Source: Bacteriovoracaceae bacterium
GTDB taxonomy: Bacteria > Bdellovibrionota > Bacteriovoracia > Bacteriovoracales > Bacteriovoracaceae
DNA length: 64,000 bases
Assembly (NCBI GenBank): GCA_048270185.1
Contig: JBLWTJ010000002.1
Location: forward strand, 416,001-480,000
Direction of reading: 5' to 3'
The position numbers and the translations under genes were made by a program. Shown here piece after piece: positions 31,712 through 47,753 of the stretch (position 1 is its first letter; each line of letters begins with the position of its first letter). Under the pieces are notes generated by a model. The model was not told where the DNA came from. It saw nothing but the letters and a program-made list of their open reading frames with translations, and did no database searches.

Positions 31712-33019
31712 TTAAATTAATTCAGCTAAAACTTGATTATCATTGAACTCTTTTAGGATAACTTTATGAATTTGATTCTTTAAATCACCTTCATGATTCA
31801 CTTTGACGCGAATAAAGTTAGAAGTGTAGCCTTCCCATAATCCATTCTTATCTTTCTTTTCAAAAAGAACTTCAGAGGTTTCGCCAATAAAGTCTTCTGC
31901 AAACATATTAAGCTTTGCATCCCCTAACATCATAAGGGTCTTTACACGACTCTTTTTAACTGGATGTTGGATATGATCTTCCATACGTGCAGCAACAGTA
32001 TTCTTTCTCTTTGAATATGGGAAAACATGAAAGTGCGTAAGAGGTAGCTCTTTCATTAAATTAAATGTGTCTTGAAATTGCTCATCTGTTTCACCAGGGA
32101 AGCCACAAATAACATCAGCACCAATTCCAGCATTTGGAAAACGAGATGTGATCTTTGTAATAATCTCTCGGTAATCTTCAACGGTGTACTTTCTCTTCAT
32201 TCCCGAAAGAATGTCGTTATTTCCACTTTGTAATGGTACGTGAAAGTGATCTAAGAACTTAGATGATGAGGCCATATAATCAAGAAGTTCATCAGTGATT
32301 GTATTTGGTTCAACACTTCCCAGACGAATTCTCTCTAGGCCTTCAAGAGCGTTTAATTCTTTTAAAAGATCTAACAGTTTTTCGCCCGAAGTTGTTTCGT
32401 ATTCACCAATATTTACACCAGTAAGAACGATCTCTTTAAAACCTTGTGCAACAACTTCGCGAGCTTCAGTAATTGCCTGTGCAATAGAAACAGCTTTTGA
32501 GCGTCCACGTGCAAATGGAATAATACAAAATGAACAAACGTAATTACACCCGTCTTGAATTTTTAAGAAAGCTCTCGTGTGCCCTTCTTCTTTTGAAGTT
32601 GCAGCACCAAAGAAGTCTTTTGATTTATCAATGTGAATCGCATCGACTTCATCTTCATTTAAGTAATCGAAGACTTTATATTTCTCACTTGTCCCCAAAA
32701 CAAGATCAACCCCTGTCATCTTAGCGATACGAGGAGCATCCATTTGAGCATAACAGCCGGCCACGACAATCTTTCCATCTGGAGAAGCTCTGTGGGCCTT
32801 ACGAATAAGGTTACGACAAGTTGAGTCCGCCCCATCCGTTACAGTACATGTATTAATAAAAGTAACGTCTGCACTTTCACCAAATTCAACAACCTTATAA
32901 CCACGCTCAACAAACCCCTGCGAGATTGTTCCCGTTTCTGAAAAGTTTAAGCGGCAGCCAAGAGTATGAAATGCTACTCTTTTATTTGTTTCTAATGTTG
33001 AATTTACTTCTGTCGTCAC
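31712..33019 (-). CDS. mtaB: tRNA t6A37 methylthiotransferase MtaB
   Basis: TLGCRLNFSE, INTCTVT, AGCYAQ, LKIQDGCNYVCSFCIIP, HVFPYSKR, C-terminal TRAM domain. Confidence 0.93.
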   Translation of the reverse strand: MTTEVNSTLETNKRVAFHTLGCRLNFSETGTISQGFVERGYKVVEFGESADVTFINTCTVTDGADSTCRNLIRKAHRASPDGKIVVAGCYAQMDAPRIAKMTGVDLVLGTSEKYKVFDYLNEDEVDAIHIDKSKDFFGAATSKEEGHTRAFLKIQDGCNYVCSFCIIPFARGRSKAVSIAQAITEAREVVAQGFKEIVLTGVNIGEYETTSGEKLLDLLKELNALEGLERIRLGSVEPNTITDELLDYMASSSKFLDHFHVPLQSGNNDILSGMKRKYTVEDYREIITKITSRFPNAGIGADVICGFPGETDEQFQDTFNLMKELPLTHFHVFPYSKRKNTVAARMEDHIQHPVKKSRVKTLMMLGDAKLNMFAEDFIGETSEVLFEKKDKNGLWEGYTSNFIRVKVNHEGDLKNQIHKVILKEFNDNQVLAELI

Positions 33020-33171
33020 TGAAGTCTACCTTTATAAAGTCCTGTATTAATCGAGTTAAAATAGACTATTGACCTATTTATGGCAACCCAACGGATAAAA
33101 AATACCAGCAGTAAATAAATTTAACTTCCTAAAAAAATTACTATTTTTTACATATTTTTTAAGATTCTATG

Positions 33172-33200
33172 TTGACTTCTGAACCAAGATTACTTATATT
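33172..33200 (+). promoter_or_regulatory. Sigma70 promoter of the tRNA operon
   Basis: TTGACT-N17-TATATT with an AT-rich upstream element. Confidence 0.75.
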
Positions 33201-33221
33201 CTATTTCACCAAAACACAGAT

Positions 33222-33298
33222 GGTCTCTTAGCTCAGTTGGTTAGAGCATCTCCCTTTTAAGGAGAGGGTCCTGCGTTCGAGTCGCAGAGAGATCACCA
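33222..33298 (+). tRNA. tRNA-Lys(TTT)
   Basis: Cloverleaf: acceptor GGTCTCT/AGAGATC, anticodon arm TCTCC-CTTTTAA-GGAGA, T-loop TTCGAGT, encoded CCA. Confidence 0.97.
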
Positions 33299-33340
33299 TT
33301 TTAATGTTTTTTGGTTTCCAAATCCGGGAAATAAGTTAGC

Positions 33341-33418
33341 GCTCCCATCGTCTAGCCCGGTCTAGGACACCGCCTTTTCACGGCGGTAACAGGGGTTCGA
33401 ATCCCCTTGGGAGTACCA
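33341..33418 (+). tRNA. tRNA-Glu(TTC); island integration target
   Basis: Acceptor GCTCCCA/TGGGAGT, anticodon arm CCGCC-TTTTCAC-GGCGG, T-loop TTCGAAT, encoded CCA. Confidence 0.97.
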
Positions 33419-33454
33419 GTTTTATAAAGAAGCCAGACCTAGTCTGGCTTTTTT
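33401..33454 (+). repeat. att copy 1 (tRNA-Glu 3' end plus terminator)
   Basis: 33403-33454 equals 37024-37075 (52 bp); 33401-33426 equals 45493-45518 (26 bp). Confidence 0.93.
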
Positions 33455-33753
33455 GTTTTCTAGCTACGGCGCAAATGAAATTCGGGTGTGCCACTTTAAA
33501 TCCAGCTTTATTGATCCACTATATTATCTATCAAACAAGGCCGTAGAAACAGCTAGTATCCACCGCCAATATTCTCCAGGTACTCTTTCATGATCTTGTT
33601 ATATTCCCTATTCATATTCTGATAAAACTGTTGTTGCTCATTCATAAGGTTTTGCTGATTCATCATATGTATTTGCTGTTGTGAGGCTAATTGGCGTCTA
33701 TATACAGACATTAATTTGTGCAAGAAATATAGTATGGGAAATTTCACAGATAT

Positions 33754-35232
33754 CTAAATTTCATTTTTAAAATACTTTCTCATATATGTTGAAAAGTAAG
33801 ATTCATATTTCTCTCTTAAAAAATTATCTTTATAAACAATTCTTTCCCCTTGGAATATTGCTTCCAAATATTGAGCGAATATCCACTTTCGACTTGCAGG
33901 ATCTTTTTTCAGTGCAATGACTTTATCTAGAATATTTACTATTTCCTCCACTTTTCCATTAGCTAAAATTAAAAGTTTATCGAAATCTTCAATCGAAACA
34001 AAAAACACATTACTTTTCGGTATAACAATATCATCAAAGCTATATTTTTTAGATAATGTTTCACCAATAAATTCATCCCAAGCGTTCTCACTATCTCCAA
34101 GATATAACTCCTTGTAAGTTACAGTGATTAGGTATTTTCTCTCCTTCTCGCTTTTTTTTGCTACATAATTCCCTTGTATAATTGATTTAACTATATTTCC
34201 CTTGTACTGATTCATGAGCACTTCGTCCGTTGGAAATACCTTTACACTAGTAGAAGCCTCTATCCCCTTTGCTTCAATTGATAGAGAGTAATCAAGTCCA
34301 GTCAGCAAGAAGTCCACTTGCTTTTCATATCCTTTTTTCTTCAGATCATTTTCATCAAGAAAGCTTATTCTATAATTAAGTAATCTACTTGTTATGTAAT
34401 TTTCAAATGCATTTAAACCGAAATCTCGAGTAAAGCCGCCCTTGCACTCTAGCTTGAGTACATCATAAATTCCAAACTCCACAAGTTCCTGTATTAAATT
34501 AATATCCCATAAGAAATAATAATCTCCAAGTTTGATAAATGGTTTAAAAACAAATGGTGAATGATCAAACATATCATTTGAAATATTTCTAATTGGAAAA
34601 TCTTCAAAAAAATAATCTATCTTATCTAATTCGAGTGAAAAATATTCTAAAAATTTTTCAATTTTAATTCTTTCAATTTCTACAAATAGTTTTGAAAATG
34701 TTTCAACCTTAACATATTCAATGGGTGTACAAGAAAATAATGTCCAAATAGTAAATACAATATCTTGAAACTCGTTTCTTTCAACCCCACACACTCTTAC
34801 TAATGATTTTGAAAAATGAGCATCCATCTTTGAGTTAACTAATAGTTCACTTGCACGTGCTAATGTACTACTACAAAGCGATTTCTGTCCCCACATTTGC
34901 TGAAAGGACATTCTCCTCATAAATTTAAAAATTCCTTTTCCTTCACCATTTAAAAAGTTTAGTCCGCTATCATTACTAAAGTCTTTGATAGCCATTAAAA
35001 TTTTATTAATAGCTAATATATTAACTTCTTCGTCACCATCAATATTTTTCCAGTCAAATAACACCATCCTAGCTAATAACATTATTTCCCAAGGTACATA
35101 GCCTTTTTTCCAAGCATTTAATTGACTTCTAGAGACATGCAAACTTAATATTAAAAGCTCGTATATCAATTCTTCTCTTCTATATGCTCTTATCATTCTT
35201 AAAATTGGCTGAAATTCCTCTAAGCCTCGCAT
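33754..35232 (-). CDS. Putative defence protein with a C-terminal PD-(D/E)xK nuclease domain (GAPS1-like architecture)
   Basis: FENYI...QVDFLL...SIEAKG catalytic pattern after a long helical N-terminal region; GAGG RBS before ATG 35232. Confidence 0.65.
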   Translation of the reverse strand: MRGLEEFQPILRMIRAYRREELIYELLILSLHVSRSQLNAWKKGYVPWEIMLLARMVLFDWKNIDGDEEVNILAINKILMAIKDFSNDSGLNFLNGEGKGIFKFMRRMSFQQMWGQKSLCSSTLARASELLVNSKMDAHFSKSLVRVCGVERNEFQDIVFTIWTLFSCTPIEYVKVETFSKLFVEIERIKIEKFLEYFSLELDKIDYFFEDFPIRNISNDMFDHSPFVFKPFIKLGDYYFLWDINLIQELVEFGIYDVLKLECKGGFTRDFGLNAFENYITSRLLNYRISFLDENDLKKKGYEKQVDFLLTGLDYSLSIEAKGIEASTSVKVFPTDEVLMNQYKGNIVKSIIQGNYVAKKSEKERKYLITVTYKELYLGDSENAWDEFIGETLSKKYSFDDIVIPKSNVFFVSIEDFDKLLILANGKVEEIVNILDKVIALKKDPASRKWIFAQYLEAIFQGERIVYKDNFLREKYESYFSTYMRKYFKNEI

Positions 35233-35392
35233 GCTAACCTCAATATATAATCCTTCAACAAAATAATTTCTATAATTTAAGTTTTCACTCTCTACACGTC
35301 GCATAATACATGAACAATTTATACCTAACAAAATAAAAAACTATTGAACTAATATCTATTTTTTAATAGAAATATCTACACAAGAGAGAATT

Positions 35393-36508
35393 ATGACAGC
35401 CAGCAAAAAAATAGACTTTTCAATTCACGATCTTTATCAATATTTAGAAAATTCATTTTCTGATAATAATGATTTAGATGTAATATACGTAGAAGACAGC
35501 GATGTAAGTAATACTCAAACACATCTAGTTTTTGAAGCAGCAGTTGGTACTGGTTCTAAAAGACTTAAAGTAAACCTATATGAACGCTTAGATGGAAGTA
35601 AAAACCTTACTGCTCCATCCAGTGGCCCATTAAAAGAAATAGGCGAGCAAATAATTGATCTAATTTATAATAATATTACAACAGTTCCCGTAAAGAATGG
35701 TTCACATGTAGTAAGAGGAACAGAAGAAACTCAAGTCCAATCATTTCTAGAAAAAGTTAAAGCAGCAGGAAACATTGTTGAAATATCAAAAGATGATGAC
35801 TCATTCTTTGTGTTTAAAGTAAACAAGATTAAATGCGGTGAAGTAAAAGTAACGTTCTATCGTACAAATGGAACTATAATGCTTCAAGGGGCTAGTAATA
35901 TATATTTTGGTGAAATTGTATCACACTGCATTGCAGAGCTTGGACACAAATTTGATGAAGCATTTAACTCCATAACAAATTCTGTAGATAATCAGTCTGT
36001 TATTAGTTGGAATGTTAATATACTTGAAAGTAATCTTAAATCAAAGCTAGGCAGTGCTTATGATCAACTTTGGCCCCATGATAAGGAAAGACTAAAAACT
36101 CTACAAATATTCGTCGATAATGATTTGAATTTTCCTGATTATTCAATTTTTGTAGCTTACGTTGGATTTGTTGTTGAAGGTGCAATCAAGTGCTTTTTAG
36201 TAAAGACAGGAATGTATTCAGATGAACAGGTAAGTCGAACAGATTTTAAAATGGCACATCCAGACTGTACAAAACAGGCTCCGTTCCACTTCCCTCAAAC
36301 TAGCTCAGTTAATCCTGTTCTTAACTTTGGACTGCCCAATATTTATGCTAATCTAGAGGGTAAGCTTATTGAGTGCTACCAGTTTTTAAGGACTTATAGA
36401 CATGACTTTAGTCACTCTAGAAAAAATATACAGCTAGTTGCGTCAGAAGCCGATGCGAAGGATAATGTGTTAGATGCATTGGACTTAATAAGAGAGCTAT
36501 TACAATGA
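35393..36508 (+). CDS. RnlA/LsoA-like (RNase LS) HEPN toxin
   Basis: TBP-like segment VTFYRTNGTIMLQG, DYS...VEG and C-terminal HEPN Rx4H motif RHDFSH; 371 aa. Confidence 0.75.
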   Translation: MTASKKIDFSIHDLYQYLENSFSDNNDLDVIYVEDSDVSNTQTHLVFEAAVGTGSKRLKVNLYERLDGSKNLTAPSSGPLKEIGEQIIDLIYNNITTVPVKNGSHVVRGTEETQVQSFLEKVKAAGNIVEISKDDDSFFVFKVNKIKCGEVKVTFYRTNGTIMLQGASNIYFGEIVSHCIAELGHKFDEAFNSITNSVDNQSVISWNVNILESNLKSKLGSAYDQLWPHDKERLKTLQIFVDNDLNFPDYSIFVAYVGFVVEGAIKCFLVKTGMYSDEQVSRTDFKMAHPDCTKQAPFHFPQTSSVNPVLNFGLPNIYANLEGKLIECYQFLRTYRHDFSHSRKNIQLVASEADAKDNVLDALDLIRELLQ

Positions 36509-36888
36509 AACTTGAAAGAGTAAGTTTACCAAATTCAAATTTCTTCTTTGTTGTTCATGACAGCAATAATATTGTTATTTTTGAAAATAAGAATATTCCA
36601 TACACTGGCAATAGCGAGGAGTATATAAAATCCCTATCTGCTTATGATCTAAGCTCTAAGAAAGTTTTTATAGATCAATTGGTAGGCTCAGATATCTCAT
36701 GTTACAGAATTTTAAAGCTAAATGAAAAATCTGCTGTTGAACTTGAATTTCTAACACTACCTAAAAAGATCAAGAGCATGATTAATATGTTTTACAATGA
36801 GGGTGTTGACTTTAAGTACCCTAAATTCTTAGAAAAAACATTTTCGAAGAAAAGAAACAATATTTTAAGTTTCGCACTCTCCTCTTAA
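36505..36888 (+). CDS. RnlB/LsoB-like antitoxin
   Basis: ATGA overlap with the toxin; 127 aa; KVFIDQLVGSDISCYRIL resembles the RnlB core. Confidence 0.62.
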   Translation: MKLERVSLPNSNFFFVVHDSNNIVIFENKNIPYTGNSEEYIKSLSAYDLSSKKVFIDQLVGSDISCYRILKLNEKSAVELEFLTLPKKIKSMINMFYNEGVDFKYPKFLEKTFSKKRNNILSFALSS

Positions 36889-37023
36889 TTAAATAACCAT
36901 CTTTCAATCTTATTCATACTACTAATAAAACTATTCAAGTTTTAATAAAGATATATACTTTAATTAATATAGTAATTAAGAAATAATACCTAAGTAACTA
37001 TGATCATTATAATTTAATACACA

Positions 37024-37076
37024 CCCCTTGGGAGTACCAGTTTTATAAAGAAGCCAGACCTAGTCTGGCTTTTTTT
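37024..37076 (+). repeat. att copy 2 (tRNA-Glu 3' end plus the same terminator)
   Basis: CCCCTTGGGAGTACCAGTTTTATAAAGAAGCCAGACCTAGTCTGGCTTTTTT, identical to 33403-33454. Confidence 0.93.
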
Positions 37077-37097
37077 ATGTCTAAAATCTTCTGCTCG

Positions 37098-38408
37098 TTA
37101 TTTGCTCGTCGATCCTACTTTCGTACTATTCTCATTCATGAAGCCTTCGATATTCTCTAAAGCATCTTTTGTAAGATGAGCTGGACGATCTGTATAGACA
37201 TGCTCCACTAATTCTCTGGTCTTCCAACCACCAACAGCTTGTGCATGCTCAATGCCCATTCTCTCTCGCACGAGGTTTGCCATAGAGTGACGTAGAATGT
37301 GAGTCGAACTAAACTTATGGCCTAATCCTGCATTTCTTAGGGCCTTATTATAACGATAGTGGATCGTTCGATAATTAAGAGGCTGGCCATCTAGATGAAA
37401 GACGAAATCACAGGAAACCTTGTTCCCTGTTCTCATATCTTCTACCTTAGAAGCTTTCCTCTCCTCGAATCGTCTTTTAAGAATAGCAAAAAGTCTTGAA
37501 GTCATAAAAACATTTCGATCTTCACCATTTTTAGGACAATCCTTTATATACTGAAATGATTTTTGTGGTCCCCAGACAGCTACATTTTCAATCTCAATGA
37601 TCCCATCCACAAAGTCGACACTTTCCCATTGAAGCCCTGCAACTTCTTGCACCCTACCAGAAAAATAAAATTGAACTTCGGCCAAATCACGCCAGAAGAT
37701 ATCGTCTTTTTCCAATTCTTCAAAAAAAGAAATGAGTTCATGCCTGCGCATTTTCTTCTTTCTTTTGGGAACTTTTCTAATAAGACCCTCTTGCTTATGT
37801 CTTTTAAGAATTGGATTAACAAATTGTGCATCAATATTTTCTCGATACCAATTAAGTACTGCTTTTAGACATTTAAGGTCATCATTAAAATTGTATCTTC
37901 TACTCTGAGGATTATTTATCGCCTCTTCCTTTTTATCCATTAGATATTCGGAAATATAGCTTGCTGTCATTTCAACCATAGGCCTAGACATCATTCCCTT
38001 TAAAAAGAGCTTTCCATTTTGTACTCGTCTATCAAAGGTTGATTTCTCTACTGTGACGAGGTGTTTAGAGACATAAAGTTCCCAAACATCACTAAAGGAG
38101 TAACCAAAATCATTACCATTTTTCATTTTAATGGTGTCATGCCTTTTTATTTCCTTTCCTAAACTTGAAAGTCGCTGGACAAGCTTTCCTTTTTTAAGTT
38201 TGCTTAAAGGAGTTAAATTAAGACTTGGATGGAAATTTTTCTTCCAATCCGCCGCCTCCTCTAACGTCTTAAAGGACGAATAATATCTCTTTCCTCTGAT
38301 ATATTTTTGCACGAGGAAAGTTCCATTAACTAAATCCTTTCTAATCCCTTTTACATCTTTATACGATACTGAAACGTATCTTCGTTTTTTTTCTGTTTTA
38401 TTGTTCAT
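37098..38408 (-). CDS. Tyrosine recombinase / integrase
   Basis: Catalytic R (GRVQE), K (PKNG), HxxR (HILRH), W (GGW), Y (HVY); adjacent to att. Start ATG 38408 after AGGAG, overlapping the upstream stop. Confidence 0.95.
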   Translation of the reverse strand: MNNKTEKKRRYVSVSYKDVKGIRKDLVNGTFLVQKYIRGKRYYSSFKTLEEAADWKKNFHPSLNLTPLSKLKKGKLVQRLSSLGKEIKRHDTIKMKNGNDFGYSFSDVWELYVSKHLVTVEKSTFDRRVQNGKLFLKGMMSRPMVEMTASYISEYLMDKKEEAINNPQSRRYNFNDDLKCLKAVLNWYRENIDAQFVNPILKRHKQEGLIRKVPKRKKKMRRHELISFFEELEKDDIFWRDLAEVQFYFSGRVQEVAGLQWESVDFVDGIIEIENVAVWGPQKSFQYIKDCPKNGEDRNVFMTSRLFAILKRRFEERKASKVEDMRTGNKVSCDFVFHLDGQPLNYRTIHYRYNKALRNAGLGHKFSSTHILRHSMANLVRERMGIEHAQAVGGWKTRELVEHVYTDRPAHLTKDALENIEGFMNENSTKVGSTSK

Positions 38409-38668
38409 TAACAATCTCCTTGTAATACCCATTCAAGGATTTCGTTAGGAACGAAAAACAAAAACTTACCTTTTTTCCTTCTCGGAATCTTCTCATCTGA
38501 ACACAGATTATAGATATGTCCTACAGAACAATCTAAGAATCTTGCTACATCGCTTACACGCCATATTCTTTTTTTAAAGAGCTGTTCTTCTTCTCGGAAG
38601 AAACTACTTTTTTCTATGCTATTTTCTACTTCATTGCAATTATTAAACCCTCTAATCACACTATCCAT
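38408..38668 (-). CDS. Helix-turn-helix excisionase/AlpA-like protein
   Basis: WRVSDVARFLDCSVGHIYNLCSDEKIP..K.GK.LFF...ILEW; translationally coupled to the integrase. Confidence 0.85.
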   Translation of the reverse strand: MDSVIRGFNNCNEVENSIEKSSFFREEEQLFKKRIWRVSDVARFLDCSVGHIYNLCSDEKIPRRKKGKFLFFVPNEILEWVLQGDC

Positions 38669-38698
38669 ACTACTCCAATTTTACGTATTACTAATCTT

Positions 38699-38822
38699 GG
38701 CCCGCTCTAACTTACTGAAATATTACCCCCGTCTAAATTGACCTCCTCCACACTACTGGTTGAGTGGGGGAGGTCAATTTCGTAAGGGGGATTTCTAAGT
38801 AAGTTTAAATACTTTGCGGGCC
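38699..38822. repeat. Long imperfect inverted repeat (124-nt hairpin)
   Basis: Nested pairs GGCCCGC/GCGGGCC, AACTTACT/AGTAAGTT, GAAAT/ATTTC, CCCCC/GGGGG, AAATTGACCTCCTCCAC/GTGGGGGAGGTCAATTT. Confidence 0.85.
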
Positions 38823-38891
38823 ATAATTTTTACCATCCACCTTAATCGCCTCTTAGACGCTTCGTAATCCCTCTCTAATCGCCGGTCATAC

Positions 38892-39626
38892 TCAGATCAA
38901 TCGCTCGCCGAAAGTGTTCGTAAAATTGAAGTTATATTGAAAGTTGTAATAGCCAGTCGTATCCTCTAGATTAATTTTTCCTTTCACCAAATGTGGATTA
39001 TGGCAGAATATAAATAGATCTGAATGCTGTGTTTCTAAATGCTCTTGGAAGACTTCTACATACTTTTTCAAAATAGATTCTTCAGGAAAGAAAAAGATAA
39101 CATAATCGAATGTGTCATCTTTTATGAATTTATAATATTTATTTTGAATACGCGTCGAAGACTTTTGAGTTAGCTCTAACTCTACTGCCATTTTCACATT
39201 ATCATCGGCTTGAGTAATCACCTCTAAGACTCCATCAGGATAGTATCCTCCATCTGATCTATCGTAGCTAAAATCTCGATAGACGTGTTCAAGATCAAAC
39301 TCATTAACATTCTTACGTAGACGAAGTTCTCTAATCAACTCAACCATTCTAGTATCGTGAAACATACTGTGATGGTTTGGTGTAAATTTTCCTCCTTTCA
39401 ATAACAATTCGTTTCCAAGCTCAGTCGCAAATATATATTTTTTGCGACTGAAGTAATCCCTATAACCTTGCACAAGGCCCTTTTTCTCTAGGCCTCTCAT
39501 AACCTTATTGAACGTCTTATACGTTCCTTGGTAAATTGATTCTTCAAATAGATTCTCTAGTGTTAGAATTTTCCACTTAATTAGTGGTCTTAAAAGTTGT
39601 AAATGTACTGGGTTGATTTGAATCAT
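38892..39626 (-). CDS. Replication-relaxation family-like protein (wHTH plus PD-(D/E)xK-like domain)
   Basis: wHTH N-terminus (MRGLEKKGLV...YIFATELG), HxxxHD, PDG...AVELELTQKS..R...KY. Confidence 0.7.
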   Translation of the reverse strand: MIQINPVHLQLLRPLIKWKILTLENLFEESIYQGTYKTFNKVMRGLEKKGLVQGYRDYFSRKKYIFATELGNELLLKGGKFTPNHHSMFHDTRMVELIRELRLRKNVNEFDLEHVYRDFSYDRSDGGYYPDGVLEVITQADDNVKMAVELELTQKSSTRIQNKYYKFIKDDTFDYVIFFFPEESILKKYVEVFQEHLETQHSDLFIFCHNPHLVKGKINLEDTTGYYNFQYNFNFTNTFGERLI

Positions 39627-39853
39627 AACGTCGATAAGTTTCTCCTTAAAAATCGTGAATAAACATGAGAAACAAGGTCTTACCGAAGTAATAAATGAGC
39701 TGTCAAACGCCTGATTTCGCTTACATCTTACATTTGAGGTATTTTTGCTAGTGCCTGACATCTCTAGAAATCTCGGGACATCTCCAGACAGGTCAAAGTG
39801 CTGTAAGAAAAAAAATTAAAAAAATTTTTCTTACACTTATATAATTGTATCTT

Positions 39854-40486
39854 CTATTTTCGTCGTTTCTTACTTACGTGAAATTTATAATAATCTTCAT
39901 AGAACTTTTCATATTGTTTAAAAAACTCTTCATAATATTTACTATTACTTTCTGGTGTATATGGAGGAAGAGGAGGTAAAGGTGCTCGAGGAAAGCCATC
40001 AAAGGGGCCTCCTCCGTTCGGATCTATATAGTTATTAATTGTAATAAAATTATAAAGAATAGCTCCACCAAATATACTTATATTCATTAATAAGTGTATT
40101 GATGTTACCAAATACCCCAATTGATTTAATGAGAATATTTGTTCAACTGATCCTGCAACTGCAACTCCCACCGTAAATGAGAAAACATTTATGATTCTAT
40201 TTATTCCAGTCCCTAAAGAAATGTAGGAAGCTTTATTTTTTGCAATTTCCCCTAACAGAATTTCCCCAAAACCATAATAAAGAAAAAAGAATCCAATATT
40301 TATAGTCAACAAAAAGAGAATTGCTGTGCTAGGAGATATACGAAAATTACAAATCATACTGAGAGCTCTATCTTGAGATATATAACTTCTATTTTCATGA
40401 TATATGGTATTTAGATAGATCAAGATGAGTACCAAACAAGGAATAATTCCTAAGCAAATACCTAAAATTATGTAATGTAAGTTCAT
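39854..40486 (-). CDS. Hypothetical membrane protein with Pro-rich and Tyr-rich tail
   Basis: About 4 hydrophobic segments; GGAG RBS. Confidence 0.65.
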   Translation of the reverse strand: MNLHYIILGICLGIIPCLVLILIYLNTIYHENRSYISQDRALSMICNFRISPSTAILFLLTINIGFFFLYYGFGEILLGEIAKNKASYISLGTGINRIINVFSFTVGVAVAGSVEQIFSLNQLGYLVTSIHLLMNISIFGGAILYNFITINNYIDPNGGGPFDGFPRAPLPPLPPYTPESNSKYYEEFFKQYEKFYEDYYKFHVSKKRRK

Positions 40487-40630
40487 TTTTTCTCCAAAAT
40501 TTCTGTATAAATTTCAGAATAGGAAGGCACTTTAATCTAGCTCCTCTCTAAGTATAAACATTATCAATTAATAGCATTTATGAACATATTGATGTTAATC
40601 TAAATTTTAAAATCAATAAGTTATATAAGA

Positions 40631-40703
40631 ATATCCATAAAAATATCCATATATATCCAAAAAGAGTGGATATATGGATATATATGGATATAATTATGGA
40701 TAT
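40631..40703. repeat. 29-bp inverted repeat built from TATCCA/TGGATA units upstream of the fic-RT cassette
   Basis: 40631-40659 is the reverse complement of 40675-40703 at 27/29 positions. Confidence 0.9.
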
Positions 40704-40714
40704 AGAGGTAAAAA

Positions 40715-41764
40715 ATGGAAATATGGCAAAAGAATGTTCAAATCACACCCAAAATTCTCAAACTTATAGCTGAGATTGATGAATTTAAAGGCTCGTGGTC
40801 TGCACTTGGCCAGTTAGCTCCAGATAAGCTTATGAGCCTAAAGAAAGTGGCCACAATTGAATCTGTCGCTTCATCAACTAGGATCGAAGGTGTTAAATTA
40901 AGTGACTCAGAAGTAAAGGCTCTCTTGTCTGGTCTTGATGTGAATTCATTTAAAAGCCGTGATGAAGAAGAAGTCGCAGGTTATGCAGAAGCAATGAACC
41001 TTATCTTTGAAAGCAGTTCAGAACTTATCCCAAATGAAAATATTATCAAACAACTTCATCAAGAGTTACTAAAATTTAGCTCAAAAGACATTCGTCACAG
41101 AGGCGAATATAAAAAACTTAATAATCATGTTGAGGCATTTGCTCCGGACGGAAAAAGTCTCGGTATTATTTTTCAAACCTCAACTCCTCTTGAAACTCCT
41201 TACAAGATGGAATCTCTATCTGACTGGCTTTCTAAATCTACGAGTGAACCTGAAATACATATCTTAATTACCATAGCGATTTTCACAGTGAGTTTTTTGG
41301 CAATTCACCCCTTTCAAGATGGAAATGGAAGACTATCACGTGCACTCACGGCCCTCCTACTTCTAAGAGCAGGTTACGACTACACTCCCTATTCTTCTCT
41401 GGAAAGAGTCATAGAAGAAAATAAAGATTTATATTACTTGAAGCTTAGAGAAGCGCAAACTGAAAATGAAGAGAGTGCTGACGGGCTTATTAGCTGGATA
41501 ACTTTCTTTCTTGAATGTCTTGTTAAGCAGAAGAATTCTCTTAAGAGAAAGGTTGAGAAAGAAAAAATATTAAAATCTCTTCCAAAGCTTTCAGAGAAAA
41601 TTCTCATCCTATTAAAAGAACATGAAAAACTATCTGTTAGTGACATTGTTAAGCTTACAGGAGCTAATAGAAACACGGTCAAATCACACGTTTTTAGCCT
41701 TGTAGAAGACAATGAAATTCAAAAAGGTGGACAAGGTAAAGGGACTTACTATTTTTTAACCTAA
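40715..41764 (+). CDS. Fic family protein with C-terminal winged HTH
   Basis: Canonical HPFQDGNGRLSR, inhibitory motif SSTRIEG, C-terminal LSVSDIVKLTGANRNTVK...GKGTYY. Confidence 0.93.
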   Translation: MEIWQKNVQITPKILKLIAEIDEFKGSWSALGQLAPDKLMSLKKVATIESVASSTRIEGVKLSDSEVKALLSGLDVNSFKSRDEEEVAGYAEAMNLIFESSSELIPNENIIKQLHQELLKFSSKDIRHRGEYKKLNNHVEAFAPDGKSLGIIFQTSTPLETPYKMESLSDWLSKSTSEPEIHILITIAIFTVSFLAIHPFQDGNGRLSRALTALLLLRAGYDYTPYSSLERVIEENKDLYYLKLREAQTENEESADGLISWITFFLECLVKQKNSLKRKVEKEKILKSLPKLSEKILILLKEHEKLSVSDIVKLTGANRNTVKSHVFSLVEDNEIQKGGQGKGTYYFLT

Positions 41765-41788
41765 AATGTATCCACATAGGAGAATTAA

Positions 41789-43534
41789 ATGAGCTTTAGA
41801 GTAAAGCCAAATCGTCTTAAGTCTTTAATCACAAGAGGTTTTTTTCCAAAAGAAATACCATGCTGTTTTAGGCCAACAAACTTTTCAGATATTGTAGATC
41901 TATCTCCGGATGAACTAAATCAAAATAAACGTCAATCAGCAAAACTCATTTCACACAATGTAACACGATTTGGTTCATTTACTAGAAAACTAGGAATACC
42001 AAATCCTATCACATTTTATCGTTTATCATCTTTAATATCTGAGCATTTTAATGAAATCCTTCCTCTAACTATAAAATCTAGCTACGGAGTAACTTTTCCA
42101 AAATCATCAACCACTGGAAGAGCTTTCGTCTGGGAATCAGATTGGCAAGAATGGAAAGAAGAAAAGATAAAAAGACAAGCAGGGTATAAATATGCTCTCA
42201 AAACAGATATTTCTAACTTTTATCCCAGTATATACACTCATATAATCCCTTGGGTTCTTCATGGAAAAAAACATTCAAAATCTAATAAAAGAGATAAAAC
42301 ATTACTTGGTAATAGAATAGATTCTTCAATTGGCTTTTCACAAGATAATCAAACACAAGGGTTACCAATTGGTCCAGACACATCATTTCTCATATCCGAA
42401 TTGATTCTAAACAAAATAGACACTACAATAAAAAAGCAACTCAAAAGTGCAAAAATTAAACATAGTGCTATTCGATTTGTAGATGACTGTGAATTTTATT
42501 TTCTCAATAATGACGATGCAAATAAAGCGTTAAACATCATTTCAAGAGTATATTCTAATTTTGAATTAGCACTAAGTCCTCACAAGACTGAAATATACAA
42601 ACTCCCTTTAGAATTTGAAAAAAAATGGGTGTCACAAATAAGAAGCTATCCTAGCCCCATTGCGACAAAAAAGTCCCAAAAGAGTAAACGTCAACTAATC
42701 ATTGACTACTTTGACTTTATCATAGAGCTCCAAAGAGAGAATCCTCACGAACAGGTAATTTCATATGCGATGGCCAGAATTGAAAAAGAGTTTTATCTAC
42801 TTGATGATGAACTGTTATTTTTCTCATTACTCATAAATTTAATCCCATTAGATACGAGTATATTAAAGTGGATAATTCATTTTCTTAATCTTGACTCAAA
42901 ACTACTAGAATCAAATATGCTACAAAATCTATTTCAAGAAGTTATTCCTAGAATTGCTCTTGATTGTAGCGAACATGGAAAGCACAATGATACACTTTGG
43001 GCATTAATTATTTCATATATATTTGATATTTCCTTCTCAAAAAAAATGAGCAATGAAATTTATAAACTAGGAAACTCTTTTGTAAAGATTCTTTGTCTCG
43101 ACTTAACTCTTGTTAGCCTAATGAAAATTGAAAAATCACTGTCTCCAAAAGAAGATGATTTCTTTGAAGAAGACTGGCTTCTTTTTTACACAGTATTTAC
43201 TAACGATGAATTCATTAATTTTAGATCTAACAAAAGTAACGGTATCAAAAAAAATATCTTTTTCAAGATGTTAAAAAATAATAATGTCTCTTTCTATGAG
43301 CCCTTTCCTTCCGATGACTCTATAGAGGCTATTCAGGAATATGTAGCAAAGCTATGTGACAAAATTGAAAGCACAGAGTACAAAATTGAAATTGATGGTG
43401 ACTTCTATGACCCAGAAGACCCACATCTAAGCCAATGTCTCCGATGTGGAGCATTCTTCACCCCTTCTGAACAAGAACAAATTTGTAATTCATGCTGGGA
43501 TGATATAACTCATGAAGACGACATTCCATTTTAA
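41789..43534 (+). CDS. Abi-type (AbiK/Abi-P2/UG class 1-like) reverse transcriptase with C-terminal zinc ribbon and DDIPF tail
   Basis: RKLGIPNP, DISNFYPSIYTHIIPW, GLPIGPDTS, RFVDD, helical C-terminal region, CLRC-x12-CNSC, ends EDDIPF. Confidence 0.9.
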   Translation: MSFRVKPNRLKSLITRGFFPKEIPCCFRPTNFSDIVDLSPDELNQNKRQSAKLISHNVTRFGSFTRKLGIPNPITFYRLSSLISEHFNEILPLTIKSSYGVTFPKSSTTGRAFVWESDWQEWKEEKIKRQAGYKYALKTDISNFYPSIYTHIIPWVLHGKKHSKSNKRDKTLLGNRIDSSIGFSQDNQTQGLPIGPDTSFLISELILNKIDTTIKKQLKSAKIKHSAIRFVDDCEFYFLNNDDANKALNIISRVYSNFELALSPHKTEIYKLPLEFEKKWVSQIRSYPSPIATKKSQKSKRQLIIDYFDFIIELQRENPHEQVISYAMARIEKEFYLLDDELLFFSLLINLIPLDTSILKWIIHFLNLDSKLLESNMLQNLFQEVIPRIALDCSEHGKHNDTLWALIISYIFDISFSKKMSNEIYKLGNSFVKILCLDLTLVSLMKIEKSLSPKEDDFFEEDWLLFYTVFTNDEFINFRSNKSNGIKKNIFFKMLKNNNVSFYEPFPSDDSIEAIQEYVAKLCDKIESTEYKIEIDGDFYDPEDPHLSQCLRCGAFFTPSEQEQICNSCWDDITHEDDIPF

Positions 43535-43558
43535 AGGAATTTATATATTGGAGAAAAT

Positions 43559-44317
43559 ATGGGCCACTACGATACACAACAAGTTTGTTTAAACGGACAC
43601 CAAATTACAGATTCAGTAAAAAAACACCCTAATGGGAAAAAGGACTTTTGCAATACATGCGGAGCAAAAACAATTACGACATGCCAAAACTGTGGTGCTG
43701 AAATAAAAGGGCATTACTATACTCCAGGTATTGTAAGTATGTTTTCTGCAAGTATTCCAAGTAACTGTGACAGCTGCGGAGCTGAACACCCATGGACTAC
43801 TGCCAGTAAATCAAATGCAACAAAAGCAGCATCTTCAGAAGCTCCATCAATAAATGATTCTATTGAGTTAATAAAATTAATTAGTCAAAGGTTTCATATG
43901 TTTGCAAGACAAATGCAAAATAGGCATTCTAATCGCTCAACTCTAGAATTTAATGATGAATATGATGTGCAAGATGCTTTCCATGCAATTCTTAAATTAC
44001 ATTTTGATGATGTTCGAGCAGAAGAGTATGTCCCAAGTTATGCTGGATCCTCTTCACGTATCGACTTTTTAATACACGATGAAGAAATTGCAATTGAAAT
44101 TAAAAAAACAAGAAATGGACTAAAAGACAAAGAGGCTGGTGAACAGATTGCCATTGATATACAAAGATACGAGACTCACCCGAAGTGCAAAAAACTTATT
44201 TGTTTTATCTATGATCCTGAAGGTAGAATTGGGAATCCAACAGGAATTGAAAGAGATTTAACAAAAAAGGTAAATGAATTACAAGTTATTACAATAGTTG
44301 CACCAAAAGGGCACTAA
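43559..44317 (+). CDS. Zinc-ribbon (DUF2321-like) fused to a DpnII/MboI-like restriction endonuclease domain
   Basis: CLNGH, CNTCG, CQNCG, CDSCG...PWT, then EYDVQD...EE..PSYAG...RIDFL...IEIK. Confidence 0.8.
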   Translation: MGHYDTQQVCLNGHQITDSVKKHPNGKKDFCNTCGAKTITTCQNCGAEIKGHYYTPGIVSMFSASIPSNCDSCGAEHPWTTASKSNATKAASSEAPSINDSIELIKLISQRFHMFARQMQNRHSNRSTLEFNDEYDVQDAFHAILKLHFDDVRAEEYVPSYAGSSSRIDFLIHDEEIAIEIKKTRNGLKDKEAGEQIAIDIQRYETHPKCKKLICFIYDPEGRIGNPTGIERDLTKKVNELQVITIVAPKGH

Positions 44318-44341
44318 GTTTCGCGTTTATAAGGGAGTTCT

Positions 44342-45358
44342 ATGCAGGAACATTTTGGATATTTTCCCAAGAAGAACTGGGAGGAACTATCAAATGAACA
44401 ACAAGAGTACTTCTATTCACTTTCAGAAGAAGAGTTGATTTCTCGTTGGAAGACTGAGGACGGATATAAAATACTCGAAGAAATCTTATCTCTAAATAAA
44501 AAGATGAACCTTTCTGGCAAACCATATGAAAGACCAGACTATAGTAAAATTACTGGTACAGTTAAAAGTGACTTGTCAAAAAAACCTCCAAAGTTTGATT
44601 TGAGAGGTATAAATCTTCAAGAATACAAAGCTTCAACAATTGATGAGATTGTTCCACATAACTTTTCATTCTGTGACCTTAGATATTCAAACTTTAAAAA
44701 TGGCAATTATAGTAACTCACATTTTAATAATTCCGATATATTATATAGCGATTTTTCTGGTTCAATATTAGATGAATGTAATTTCTCAAAATCAAACCTA
44801 ACATTGAGTGATTTCAGTTACACAAACCTAGACCATGCAAACTTTAGTAATAGCTGGATAACTAGCCTGAGATTAAAAAAAGCCTCTCTCTCATATGTTA
44901 AGTTTTCTAACGATACAAAGTTTTATGACATAGATATTAGTGAAATCTCAGGAAATGCAAACCCTTTCTTCACTTCACATGTACGTAGAACACTATATCT
45001 GAACAACTTCAGAGAGCAGAGTTCTACAAACAACCTGTTATATCACGCATGGAAAATCACAAGTAATTGTGGAGAAAGTTTCTTTCGATGGTACATAACA
45101 GCATCATGTATTATAGCCCTTTTTGGTTTTATATTCTCCTTGATGCCTGAAGTATTACATAGCGGAACAACTAAAGAGTTAACACCATTCACTTTTTATT
45201 ACTTTAGCACAGTCACCTTCACAACTCTTGGCTTTGGAGATATCACCCCCGTTGGTTTAGTAGGAGAAGCTCTTGTAACAATTGAAGTTATTTTAGGATA
45301 CATAATGCTAGGTGGATTAATTAGTATATTTTCAAACAAATTCATTGCAAAAGATTAA
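44342..45358 (+). CDS. Pentapeptide-repeat protein fused to a two-TM potassium-channel-like (Ion_trans_2) domain
   Basis: (S/C)(D/N)(F/L)Sx pentapeptide run; YFSTVTFTTLGFGDITP pore motif flanked by TM helices. Confidence 0.88.
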   Translation: MQEHFGYFPKKNWEELSNEQQEYFYSLSEEELISRWKTEDGYKILEEILSLNKKMNLSGKPYERPDYSKITGTVKSDLSKKPPKFDLRGINLQEYKASTIDEIVPHNFSFCDLRYSNFKNGNYSNSHFNNSDILYSDFSGSILDECNFSKSNLTLSDFSYTNLDHANFSNSWITSLRLKKASLSYVKFSNDTKFYDIDISEISGNANPFFTSHVRRTLYLNNFREQSSTNNLLYHAWKITSNCGESFFRWYITASCIIALFGFIFSLMPEVLHSGTTKELTPFTFYYFSTVTFTTLGFGDITPVGLVGEALVTIEVILGYIMLGGLISIFSNKFIAKD

Positions 45359-45492
45359 TATTGCTCGTTTTTGCTCGTCGATAGCCATGAATTAAGATGA
45401 AAAATGATGAAAAGTCCCGAGAAAGAAAAAGGCAAGCCTTTGAAATCGCTCGTAACGCCTTAGAATGATTGATTAAATTTACACGATTGGAT

Positions 45493-45518
45493 ATCCCCTT
45501 GGGAGTACCAGTTTTATA
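45493..45518 (+). repeat. att copy 3 (right island boundary)
   Basis: ATCCCCTTGGGAGTACCAGTTTTATA, identical to 33401-33426. Confidence 0.93.
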
Positions 45519-45520
45519 TT

Positions 45521-45544
45521 AGGCCAGTCTTTGACTGGCCTTTT
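45521..45544 (+). terminator. Intrinsic terminator, probably the original tRNA-operon terminator displaced by integration
   Basis: AGGCCAGTC-ttt-GACTGGCCT followed by Ts, directly after att copy 3. Confidence 0.75.
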
Positions 45545-45565
45545 ATATTTTTGGAGGCAGCAATT

Positions 45566-45750
45566 GCCACGATGGCAAATTGATGCCGAACAACGCCGAC
45601 CGACCAGTATGGGAGGTCAGGTGAATCAACTAAGCAAAATAGCCTCACCTACTTTTACTGACAATAATTCAAACAGAAGCGCCACGATGGCAAATTGATG
45701 CCGAACAACGCCGACCGACCACTATGGGAGGTCAGGTGAATCAACTAAGC
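45566..45750. repeat. Two direct 70-bp REP-like repeats
   Basis: 45566-45635 and 45681-45750 differ at one position; 45-bp spacer. Confidence 0.9.
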
Positions 45751-45830
45751 TATTCCACCCTTCCCCCATTCGTACAAAATCAATTTCTAGCTTACAATAT
45801 TACTTTATCCCTTTAATAAATGAGAAAGTA

Positions 45831-46958
45831 TTGAGCTTAGACTTCTATAATAAACTTCCAATTATCAGCGAATTCACACAAATGGCGGACTTGAGCTTCT
45901 ATCAAGACCTACCGGATGATTGGATTATTATTGTTACAGATGTCATCGATTCAACCAAGGCCGTCGCGGCCGGAAAGTATAAAGATGTTAATACCATTGG
46001 GGCCGCAACGATTTCATGTGTGCAGGCCAAGCTTAAAACGCTTGGTTTTCCCTTTGTCTTTGGAGGCGATGGTGCAACTCTTGTGCTACCAACGAATCTC
46101 TATGAAGAAGTTAAAAGCGATCTAGTGGCCCTAATGAAAATCTCACAAGATAAGTTTGGGCTTAGTATGCGTGTTGGGGCCATTTCAAATAAAGAGCTTC
46201 TTGATAAAGGTATTAAAACAAAAGTCTCGCGTTATCAAATCAATCCCAAGCAGGCCATTGCCGTCTTTAGTGGAGGCGGACTTAAGCTTGCGGATAAAAT
46301 TATAAAAGATGAATACGATAAGTATCAACTGACGGCTTCTCAGGATACAAATTCCGACCTGAGTAATCTCTCATGTCGCTGGAACCCTATTCCAAGTAAA
46401 TTTGGAAAGATTCTAACTTTGCTTATTGAATCAAAATCTCAAGATGAGAATTATTATAATGAGATTCTAACCAATCTGGATCAAATTCTTGAAGGACAAG
46501 TTTTAAATCGAGGACCGATGAACTTGGATAAGATGACGTATAAGGGATTCTTTCAACTATTATTTGAAGAGTCTCGCCTATCCCTATCACTGGATCGTTT
46601 GAAGAGTATCTTCTTTTCAATAGTTTTATTCAAGTGGGGCAAATACAAAGACTATCCAAATGTGGAAAATTACCGCAAGCAGATGGGGCTTCACAGTGAT
46701 TATAAGAAATTTGATGACATGATTAGACTGGTTCTCGACTGTGGCCCAGAACAAGTTAATAAGATCGAAAAATATCTTAAGGATGAATATCAAAAGGGTC
46801 ACTTAATCTACGGAACTCATCTTTCTAACACAGCTCTTATGACTTGCTTAGTGGAAACAATTGAAGATGGAGATCATATTCACTTTATAGATGGTGGTGA
46901 TGGTGGTTACACAGCAGCTTCAATTCAATTAAAAGAGCAGGCCTTACTGCGAGAGTGA
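45831..46958 (+). CDS. DUF3095-like protein (nucleotide cyclase-like fold)
   Basis: LPDDW.I.VTDV..ST.A...GKYKDVN, PFVFGGDGA, LSCRW, HIHFIDG.DGGY..A. Confidence 0.8.
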   Translation: MSLDFYNKLPIISEFTQMADLSFYQDLPDDWIIIVTDVIDSTKAVAAGKYKDVNTIGAATISCVQAKLKTLGFPFVFGGDGATLVLPTNLYEEVKSDLVALMKISQDKFGLSMRVGAISNKELLDKGIKTKVSRYQINPKQAIAVFSGGGLKLADKIIKDEYDKYQLTASQDTNSDLSNLSCRWNPIPSKFGKILTLLIESKSQDENYYNEILTNLDQILEGQVLNRGPMNLDKMTYKGFFQLLFEESRLSLSLDRLKSIFFSIVLFKWGKYKDYPNVENYRKQMGLHSDYKKFDDMIRLVLDCGPEQVNKIEKYLKDEYQKGHLIYGTHLSNTALMTCLVETIEDGDHIHFIDGGDGGYTAASIQLKEQALLRE

Positions 46959-47753
46959 TATCGCTTCTTCGACAACATTGCCTTTAAAACCTCGACGTTC
47001 AATATAGCGTCTAAAGAAGCCTGAGGCCTTAGCGATGAGGGTTTGTCTTTTTGGAATAACGATCTGTTCAGAACGTTGCTCAATTCCTTGAATGATCTCG
47101 CGAACAACTTCATCAATTGAGATCATCTTCCAAGGTCCTGATTGATTTCCACCCCATAACTTTTCACCGACTGGATCACTTGTTACTCCATCCATTAAAG
47201 GGGACGCAAAGAATGTAGGATGGAAGCTTCCTACATCGACACCTAAGTGCTTAACTTCAAGGCGAATACTATTACAGATGGCGTGAAGACCGGCTTTACT
47301 TGCTGCATATGAAGCTTGCAATGGACAGTGAACAAATGAGGCCATGGAACAGATAGCGGCCATGTAACCTTCGCTAAGGGCAATATAAGGAAGGGCCGCT
47401 TTAAAAGTTCTCCAGGAACCGTTTAAGTTAATATCAATAACTCGTGAAAAGTCTTCTTCATTAGTTGTCATCATTGGGGCCACTTGTGTAATACCTGCAT
47501 TGGCAATGACGATATCGATGCAACCATAGTGAGAATTAATCTCTTTCATCGCAACTTCAAGGGAAGAGTAATCTCTTACATCGGCACTGAAGCCAACTGC
47601 ATCTAAATCTCTGGCCAACTCATTAACCTGTGTTAAGTCGAGATCAATAAGAGCAAGCTTGGCGCCACGTTTAACTAACTCATAAGATAGAGCACGCCCT
47701 AAGCCTCCAGTGGAGCCAGTAATGGCAATCACTTTATCTTTTACTTCTCTCAT
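46944..47753 (-). CDS. Short-chain dehydrogenase/reductase
   Basis: TGSTGGLG, ANAG, YAASK. Confidence 0.92.
   Translation of the reverse strand: MREVKDKVIAITGSTGGLGRALSYELVKRGAKLALIDLDLTQVNELARDLDAVGFSADVRDYSSLEVAMKEINSHYGCIDIVIANAGITQVAPMMTTNEEDFSRVIDINLNGSWRTFKAALPYIALSEGYMAAICSMASFVHCPLQASYAASKAGLHAICNSIRLEVKHLGVDVGSFHPTFFASPLMDGVTSDPVGEKLWGGNQSGPWKMISIDEVVREIIQGIEQRSEQIVIPKRQTLIAKASGFFRRYIERRGFKGNVVEEAISLSQ

Follow-up and report, generated by a model that had tools for sequence, protein, structure and literature searches.

A DRT6-like reverse transcriptase and its C-terminal tail

The DNA analysed here (the window) is a 64,000-nucleotide stretch from the genome of a Bacteriovoracaceae bacterium (3.35 Mb, 36.6% GC). 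At 41789..43534 on the + strand it encodes a DRT6-like reverse transcriptase (RT) of 581 aa, with a C-terminal tail that ends like SSB, the protein which binds single-stranded DNA. The RT gene is the second of four + strand genes, which encode in order a Fic-domain protein, the RT, a nuclease and a predicted channel. We describe the RT and its tail, the occurrence of similar tails in homologues and other genomes, and the genetic setting, and then weigh what the SSB-like tip may do.

The protein is, as judged from profile and structure searches, a class-1 UG/Abi defence RT that is nearest to DRT6. Pfam RVT_1 (1e-12) covers residues 121-275. The PADLOC profile Drt6 matches residues 8-517 (6e-127, 422 bits; profile positions 2-491 of 511), with Drt4 a small margin below (1e-120, 402 bits), followed by UG30, UG14 and AbiK (157 bits). 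The top match in the PDB is the MBP-DRT6 fusion of 9wy8 (1.9e-45, 159 bits). Weaker matches are DRT4/UG15 (4e-30, 109 bits), 7r08, a reverse transcriptase of 541 aa (1e-24), and AbiK (2e-14). Because the PADLOC profiles and the solved structures both rank DRT6 first, we place the RT closest to that type. This bears out the original prediction, made from the DNA letters and open reading frames of the window, that the gene encodes a defence RT.

The catalytic D140 and the FVDD motif (residues 230-233) are present. In an alignment of 130 sequences (A1), which was used for conservation, for an AlphaFold2 model and for profile scans of genomes, D232 is invariant and D233 is at least 90% conserved. 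Also invariant in A1 are H151 and D178, which correspond by alignment to H160 and D192 of the RNase site in DRT4. The RT carries the two residues, His and Asp, that make up this effector site, and RNase activity is a prediction from them. The AlphaFold2 model has a mean pLDDT of 90.5 and is confident for the body to about residue 520. [quoted passage not shown]

The last conserved motif of the body (SFY) is directly followed by residue 505, at position 43300, and the extension past the RT family body comprises residues ~518-581. The final 82 residues read SFYEPFPSDDSIEAIQEYVAKLCDKIESTEYKIEIDGDFYDPEDPHLSQCLRCGAFFTPSEQEQICNSCWDDITHEDDIPF-stop. Residues 508-545 (43310..43423) include 13 acidic and 3 basic residues. 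From residue 518 to 549 (43340..43435) the chain is an acidic, mostly disordered linker, whose KIEIDGDFYD lines up with KIEVHFDFDD, a motif in the tail of DRT6. Next is a C4 zinc-ribbon-like module, CLRC-x12-CNSC (C550, C553, C566 and C569; 43436..43495), on which Pfam DZR_2 gives a weak match (E 0.001, 19.4 bits versus a curated cut-off of 27). The protein ends in a 12-residue peptide, WDDITHEDDIPF, from W570 to F581 (43496..43531), followed by the stop codon at 43532..43534. The copy of the SSB tip, DDIPF, occupies 43517..43531; the last seven residues are HEDDIPF, with a free C-terminal Phe. The acidic linker, the four cysteines and the terminal peptide had all been read from the DNA in the original prediction, and are found exactly so in the open reading frame.

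In the AlphaFold2 model, pLDDT is below 50 for residues 528-543, 58-74 for the module at 548-576 and 41 for the tip. The tail is thus modelled as a tethered peptide. The zinc-ribbon module stands between linker and tip, unlike the arrangement in SSB. A Pfam scan of the RT protein finds no SSB or OB domain, so the RT would be an SSB mimic rather than an SSB.

SSB-like tips in the host, in RT homologues and in other genomes

The host genome encodes two SSBs, ending ...FTSDDIPF and ...MDFDDDIPF. The last five residues of the RT are identical to those of both, in agreement with the identification of DDIPF as the bacterial SSB C-terminal peptide in the original prediction. Such endings are rare. 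The host genome has 5300 stop-to-stop frames of 80 aa or longer, and only three of them end in DDIPF, namely the two SSB genes and the RT. Amino-acid composition leads to an expectation of about 0.001 such endings by chance among the 2277 frames that reach 200 aa. In its last 18 nt the RT gene differs from both ssb genes at synonymous sites, a stretch too short for a verdict on gene conversion.

The second SSB (G000:C8:3513-4250, L002) is 244 aa long and has a Gln/Pro-rich repeat linker before its MDFDDDIPF ending. Its contig is 12.9 kb with GC like that of the genome, and the gene may belong to a mobile element. Also encoded in the host genome, on a 6.5-kb contig (G000:C19:1222-1776, L116), is a 184-aa open reading frame (ORF) with the SSB-tip-like ending EFSEDLPF; it matched no Pfam family.

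We examined 263 RT proteins, comprising 117 from a word-indexed search and the best 150 library representatives of 3554 (E <=0.001), the two sets overlapping. Homologues of at least 480 aa (n=239) were treated as full-length. Alignments to the RT end at about residue 504-545 for all of the best 150 library representatives except a cluster at 52% identity. Among the 263 proteins, they extend past about residue 545 only in P0002 and P0003 (52% identity). The four ribbon cysteines occur in 3 of the 263 (the RT, P0002 and P0003), and P0002 and P0003 share both the zinc ribbon and a KIEVDG motif with the RT. The zinc ribbon is a trait of this small RT lineage, in which DDIPF is unique to the RT of the window.

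Endings in Pro-Phe (PF) recur in the family as a whole. They are found in 14 of the 239 full-length homologues, compared with 17 of the 5300 host-genome frames, an excess of about 18-fold for the RT family. Eleven of the 14 have a net charge of -5 or lower over the last 20 residues. The stricter pattern [DE][ILV]PF ends six of the 239, including NDDIPF in P0194 (32% identity) and DDDDLPF in P0262 (Mucilaginibacter). Strongly acidic tails, by the same charge measure, occur in 55 of the 239. The C-terminal residue is aromatic in 100 (Tyr in 70, Phe in 27 and Trp in 3); the corresponding terminal frequencies among host-genome frames are 4.5%, 7.7% and 0.8%. A terminal aromatic residue looks like a family-wide feature of these RTs.

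A run of Gly (GGGGY) or of acidic residues often precedes the terminal Tyr. This Tyr was considered as an alternative primer and rejected, as the presence of a Tyr in the loop aligned with DRT4 Y125 shows no anticorrelation with it (24 and 7 versus 78 and 21).

In a FastTree phylogeny built after removal of the last 60 residues, the PF label requires at least 12 changes for 14 rows, so gain or loss of the PF tip occurred many times. The members of one 90% cluster end in EDEDLPF, DDKDLPF, DNDGLPF and DDEDLLF; here the linker drifts while the tip stays. The tails of the RT family are, by these comparisons, hypervariable yet not random.

A single-protein search of genome contigs with the RT returned 108 pattern matches and no relatives. 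A scan of reference genomes with the A1 profile found 585 relatives. Of these, 80 were kept, of which 71 are complete RTs of at least 480 aa, and the SSB genes of these genomes were then looked up. Two of the 71 end in DDLPF or EDLPF, and the motif ends one of 1566 flanking frames.

The RT tips can be compared with the SSB of the same genome. In the window host the RT ends DDIPF, as do both SSB copies. A Chitinophagaceae metagenome-assembled genome encodes an RT ending ...VYDDLPF and an SSB ending ...TRDDLPF. The Albibacterium RT ends ...SEDEDLPF and its SSBs ...EEDDLPF and ...SEDDLPF. In a further genome, from a Bacteroidota sample (G256), the RT ends ...EPTDLPF and the SSB ...GDDDLPF. The choice between I and L equals that of the host's own SSB in all four genomes with an [IL]PF-ending RT. 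A looser case is Nitrospira, with an RT ending EDGDF and a sole SSB match ending DMDEQG. The Bacteroidota sample comprised 301 genomes, 19 of them with RT matches at E <=1e-20. Four encode a full-length DRT6-like RT (E <=1e-90, about 500 of 520 profile positions), and two of these four end in LPF. The RT tails of several lineages have converged on the SSB tip of their own host.

Island, apparent operon and a second SSB-tipped family

A tRNA-Glu gene is located at 33341-33418. Its 3' end, with the bases after it, defines a family of direct repeats (D1) with copies at 33403-33426, 37024-37047 and 45495-45518. Because the tRNA-Glu 3' end is repeated in this way, at 33403, 37024 and 45495, we interpret 37024-45518 as an 8.5-kb integrative island at tRNA-Glu, with the + strand D1 copies at 37024..37047 and 45495..45518 as its att-like left and right ends. 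GC is 31-35% within the island versus 39-41% past it. With three copies, the repeats delimit two islands in tandem (33.4-37.0 kb and 37.0-45.5 kb), and it is the second that has the integrase and the RT operon. The island encodes a tyrosine integrase at 37098..38432 on the - strand (Pfam Phage_integrase 7e-15). A search of 60 host relatives did not turn up the RT, which we therefore regard as accessory cargo. Just outside the right end are two 70-nt direct repeats (45566-45635 and 45681-45750), 99% identical, 115 nt apart and without an Rfam match.

The first of the four + strand genes (40715..41764) encodes a Fic-domain protein with a C-terminal winged helix-turn-helix, similar to SoFic (Pfam Fic 8e-16, PADLOC SoFic 1.6e-48). 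Following the RT gene is one for a fusion of a DUF2321 zinc ribbon with a DpnII-MboI-type restriction nuclease (43559..44317, + strand; PF18742 1e-55, PF10083 3e-29). The last gene (44342..45358, + strand) encodes a pentapeptide-repeat protein with a C-terminal ion-channel domain (Pentapeptide 3e-11, Ion_trans_2 8e-10). The gaps between the four genes are each exactly 24 nt (41765-41788, 43535-43558 and 44318-44341). They differ in sequence, and each has its own Shine-Dalgarno-like site. A promoter-like site is present at 40667-40694 and a terminator-like hairpin at 45521-45541. From this arrangement the four genes look co-transcribed, as an apparent operon.

AT-rich GGATATAT repeats in both orientations (40633-40715) overlap the promoter-like site before the Fic gene and may be an operator. 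The repeats give a spurious Rfam microRNA match below threshold. An Rfam scan of 33000-47000 found only the two tRNAs above threshold, with one match below it on an AT-rich palindrome, and no non-coding RNA.

Next to other tipped RTs are genes that resemble neither one another nor the operon of the window. They include an M20 peptidase and CLC channel in one case, SIR2-HerA and a type I R-like gene in another, and SLATT in a third. The DUF2321-nuclease gene was not found beside any other SSB-tipped RT examined. Since the neighbours are unrelated, we infer that no conserved partner from the operon is the tip's client.

A second family of SSB-tipped defence-island proteins was encountered in an Acidobacteriota locus (L071:5607-6593, + strand), where a 328-aa ORF directly after a DRT6-like RT ends EEFDDDVPF. 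The SSB of the same genome ends NDDDVPF, the same variant as in the nuclease, a comparison that covers one genome. The ORF represents a highly conserved Mrr-like nuclease family of about 326 aa (P0283-P0403) with 3890 matches, the best 120 at 74-100% identity. Of these 120 listed members, 112 end in [IVL]PF and 76 in DDDIPF. The ESM Atlas cluster name for the family of P0283 is 'restriction endonuclease'. These proteins differ from the RTs in fold and enzyme type, and the tip is family-wide in them and sporadic in the RTs.

The P0283-like nuclease was rejected as a general RT partner. It is adjacent to an RT in L071, but none of four further loci with a nuclease of this family holds an RT. No similarity was found between it and the restriction nuclease next to the RT in the window. 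In a Bacteroidota genome, an ORF located downstream of a class-1 RT that is more distant (L096:3-680, - strand) has a P0283-like N-terminal motif, FPYRSS.F...HDGTTR. It runs off the locus, and its C-terminus is outside it.

Possible roles of the tip and relation to known systems

Work on the closest characterised systems provides a framework for considering the tip. DRT4 and DRT6 are reported to form hexamers and to synthesise single-stranded DNA (ssDNA) in a protein-primed, template-independent way, and in DRT4 residues 507-540 are described as flexible and Tyr125 as the priming residue (PMC12783706). Deletion of DRT4 residues 508-540, or mutation of N521, F523 or E525, is stated to abolish protection and activation dependent on gp44, a phage SSB, with polymerisation kept. 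Without residues 508-540, gp44 reportedly associates solely via the nascent ssDNA, and the authors' term for the sensing is 'two-factor authentication' (bioRxiv 10.64898/2026.10.21.760695). A second preprint describes a DRT4-triggering phage SSB-like protein, 0087, that itself ends in DDIPF (bioRxiv 10.64898/2026.10.27.754916). RecT/Red-beta function is reported to depend on the last seven residues of the host SSB (PMC13490951; PMC6393309).

We consider it probable that the RT tip is functional at all. What it does is more tentative. The reading that we favour, without holding it to be established, is that the tip is a host-matched mimic of the SSB C-terminal peptide (SSB-Ct) on a variable sensor tail, most likely baiting phage proteins that dock on SSB. 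We favour it because the tail is at the position of the DRT4 region that contacts phage SSB, is disordered and evolutionarily labile, and has in several lineages converged on the tip of the host.

By homology, the RT would assemble as a hexamer and produce ssDNA that is protein-primed and untemplated. Its last ~64 residues would be a lineage-specific version of the flexible, phage-SSB-contacting region of DRT4. Proteins with a pocket for the SSB tip could dock on the RT, beside the ssDNA that it makes. The likeliest clients would be phage annealing proteins of the RecT, Red-beta or Sak type, phage SSBs, and replisome parts that need the host SSB tip. The tip and the ssDNA may jointly report infection and license an abortive response. 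The tip would then be the protein-contact half of infection sensing, and ssDNA the other half.

Several observations weigh against this reading. The two homologues that share the ribbon, P0002 and P0003, end KMLKD and KILED. Because these 52%-identity homologues lack the tip, it is dispensable for the basic function of the lineage. In the family as a whole, 225 of the 239 full-length homologues have endings other than PF. Three of the four host matches are from Bacteroidota and so are of limited independence, and other matches are loose (RT DDDPF versus SSB DDDIPF in Geobacteraceae, and EDNGF versus DEDIPF in Corallococcus). None of seven DRT6-like RTs from 401 Pseudomonadota genomes has an [ILV]PF tip. 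The DRT4 priming Tyr125 aligns with Ser117 of the RT, at a position that differs among family members, so the DRT4 mechanism does not transfer to this RT residue for residue.

Mimicry of SSB-Ct, the central claim of the original prediction, gains from the recurrence of the tip in the family and from the match to host variants, and loses from the lack of the tip in the two closest homologues. Of the two tail features whose conservation it had proposed to compare, the zinc ribbon is kept in P0002 and P0003 and DDIPF is not. It had named absence of the tail from close homologues as an outcome that would speak against it, and half of this is seen, with the ribbon retained and the tip missing.

Recruitment of a host nuclease is the alternative with the best prior, and we judge it unlikely; the other alternatives are weaker still. 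The tip would dock host nucleases that are SSB partners, above all exonuclease I (ExoI, SbcB), onto the RT, and the ssDNA would be cut back and do no harm as long as its 3' end is not shielded by a phage SSB-like protein. Such recruitment would account for how an ssDNA polymerase with constitutive activity is kept harmless. ExoI is a classical client of SSB-Ct. Solved complexes are 3c94 and 3c95, and we take the SSB-Ct site of E. coli ExoI to consist of R148, Y207, Q311, R316, L331 and R338 (1fxx numbering). The 1fxx sequence carries exactly those residue types at the six positions. The host encodes an ExoI homologue of 551 aa (G000:C23, L004:853-2508; E 3e-61 to E. coli ExoI), but in this enzyme the six positions read F, Y, E, S, D and N, with one of six kept. 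The C-terminal region of the host homologue is unlike that of E. coli ExoI.

Published results for DRT4 and DRT6 fit such recruitment. Their ssDNA is reported to be degraded by a host 3'-5' exonuclease, both systems are described as toxic in an sbcB knockout, and T5 ORF55 is stated to shield the ssDNA 3' end and to activate both (PMC12783706). A host client would also fit host-matched tips as well as a phage client does. A safety role, however, predicts stable conservation, and the tip is scattered on the tree and missing from the closest homologues.

It is distinctly unlikely, in our estimate, that the tip has no specific function and that DDIPF arose by drift in a hypervariable, acidic tail. 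The motif was chosen by eye, it is not found in the closest homologues, and the PF label is spread over the tree nearly at random, with 12 changes needed by its 14 rows, as drift would have it. Set against this are the expectation of ~0.001 such endings per genome, the 18-fold excess of PF in the family over genome frames, the four host matches in four genomes, and the retention of the tip in the 90% cluster despite variation in the linker.

We give little weight to regulation in cis, whereby the acidic, aromatic-ended tail would act as a DNA mimic in the ssDNA channel of the RT, or on the OB fold of a product-bound SSB, and gate synthesis or RNase activity. Precedents are the reported intramolecular binding of the SSB tip to its own OB domain (PMC3936761) and the low-confidence prediction that the acidic tail of gp44 lies inside the DRT4 DNA channel (bioRxiv 10.64898/2026.10.21.760695). 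The strongly acidic tails of 55 of 239 homologues and the aromatic ends of 100 of 239 are also consistent with such a role. A generic DNA mimic, however, needs neither the exact host tip nor the I/L/V variant of the host, and the AlphaFold model puts the tail outside the body, though the pLDDT of the tip is just 41.

Finally, it is highly improbable that the tip serves to hold the DUF2321-restriction nuclease or the Fic protein on the RT: the identical 24-nt gaps, the apparent co-transcription and the zinc ribbons and nuclease effector domain of the neighbour would suit this, but the neighbours of other SSB-tipped RTs are unrelated, the tip follows the host SSB rather than the neighbour, and Fic (SoFic) is known as a stand-alone defence gene.

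If the tip is a bait for phage proteins, as we favour, immunity would be triggered by an interaction that the phage needs for its own replication, and the decoy on the RT would act with the RT's own ssDNA as second recognition factor. Current answers to how class-1 RTs sense infection are phage SSB-like proteins, annealing proteins and host SbcB, all of which converge on ssDNA and the SSB tip. A tail that copies the host SSB tip would be a direct and cheap, five-residue handle on infection recognition.

A broader idea, possible if doubtful, is that copies of the host SSB tip form a portable, host-matched sensor module. It would occur sporadically as a decoy on DRT6-like RTs and family-wide on the mobile Mrr-like nuclease, in each case catching phage proteins that must dock on host SSB. 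The convergence among relatives of the RT, together with the unrelated nuclease family, suggests that bacterial immunity may use such an 'SSB-tip decoy' as a general design.

In comparison with SSB-Ct (...DDDIPF-COOH), the RT has the terminal Phe, the preceding acidic residues, the disordered tether and five identical residues. Unlike SSB, it has no OB fold or ssDNA-binding core, and the peptide hangs off a polymerase via a zinc ribbon. AbiK (Lactococcus, 7r06) is a homologous class-1 Abi polymerase that is more distant from the RT (E 2e-14), and to our knowledge no SSB-like tip has been reported on it. Its escape mutants are described as mapping to phage single-strand annealing proteins (bioRxiv 10.64898/2026.10.27.754916), which ties its genetics to phage ssDNA recombination proteins, the clients proposed for the RT tip.

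The RT is most like DRT6 (UG12) and DRT4 (UG15; 9wy8, 21ou, 9ltm and 9vdo for the two types), with which it shares the RT palm, the catalytic Asp, alpha-helical repeats without a thumb, and a flexible C-terminal region after the body. DRT6 itself has a long acidic tail that shares a KIE[IV]..DF.D motif with the RT. P0059, to which the DRT6 of 9wy8 corresponds, ends ...EDEDGDIFE, and P0101, a P. aeruginosa DRT4, ends ...DYLEKN. Unlike these, the RT tail includes a C4 zinc ribbon and finishes with an exact copy of the SSB tip of the host. The RT gene also lies in an apparent four-gene operon rather than alone. We found no paper on an SSB-type tip in a defence RT in the literature covered, with the DRT6 cryo-EM study and the preprint supplements outside that coverage. 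The original prediction had suggested an unusual mechanism for a defence RT. Contact of a C-terminal region with a phage SSB is already reported for DRT4, and in this respect the mechanism is less unusual than had been supposed; the novelty lies in the form that the sensor tail takes in this RT.

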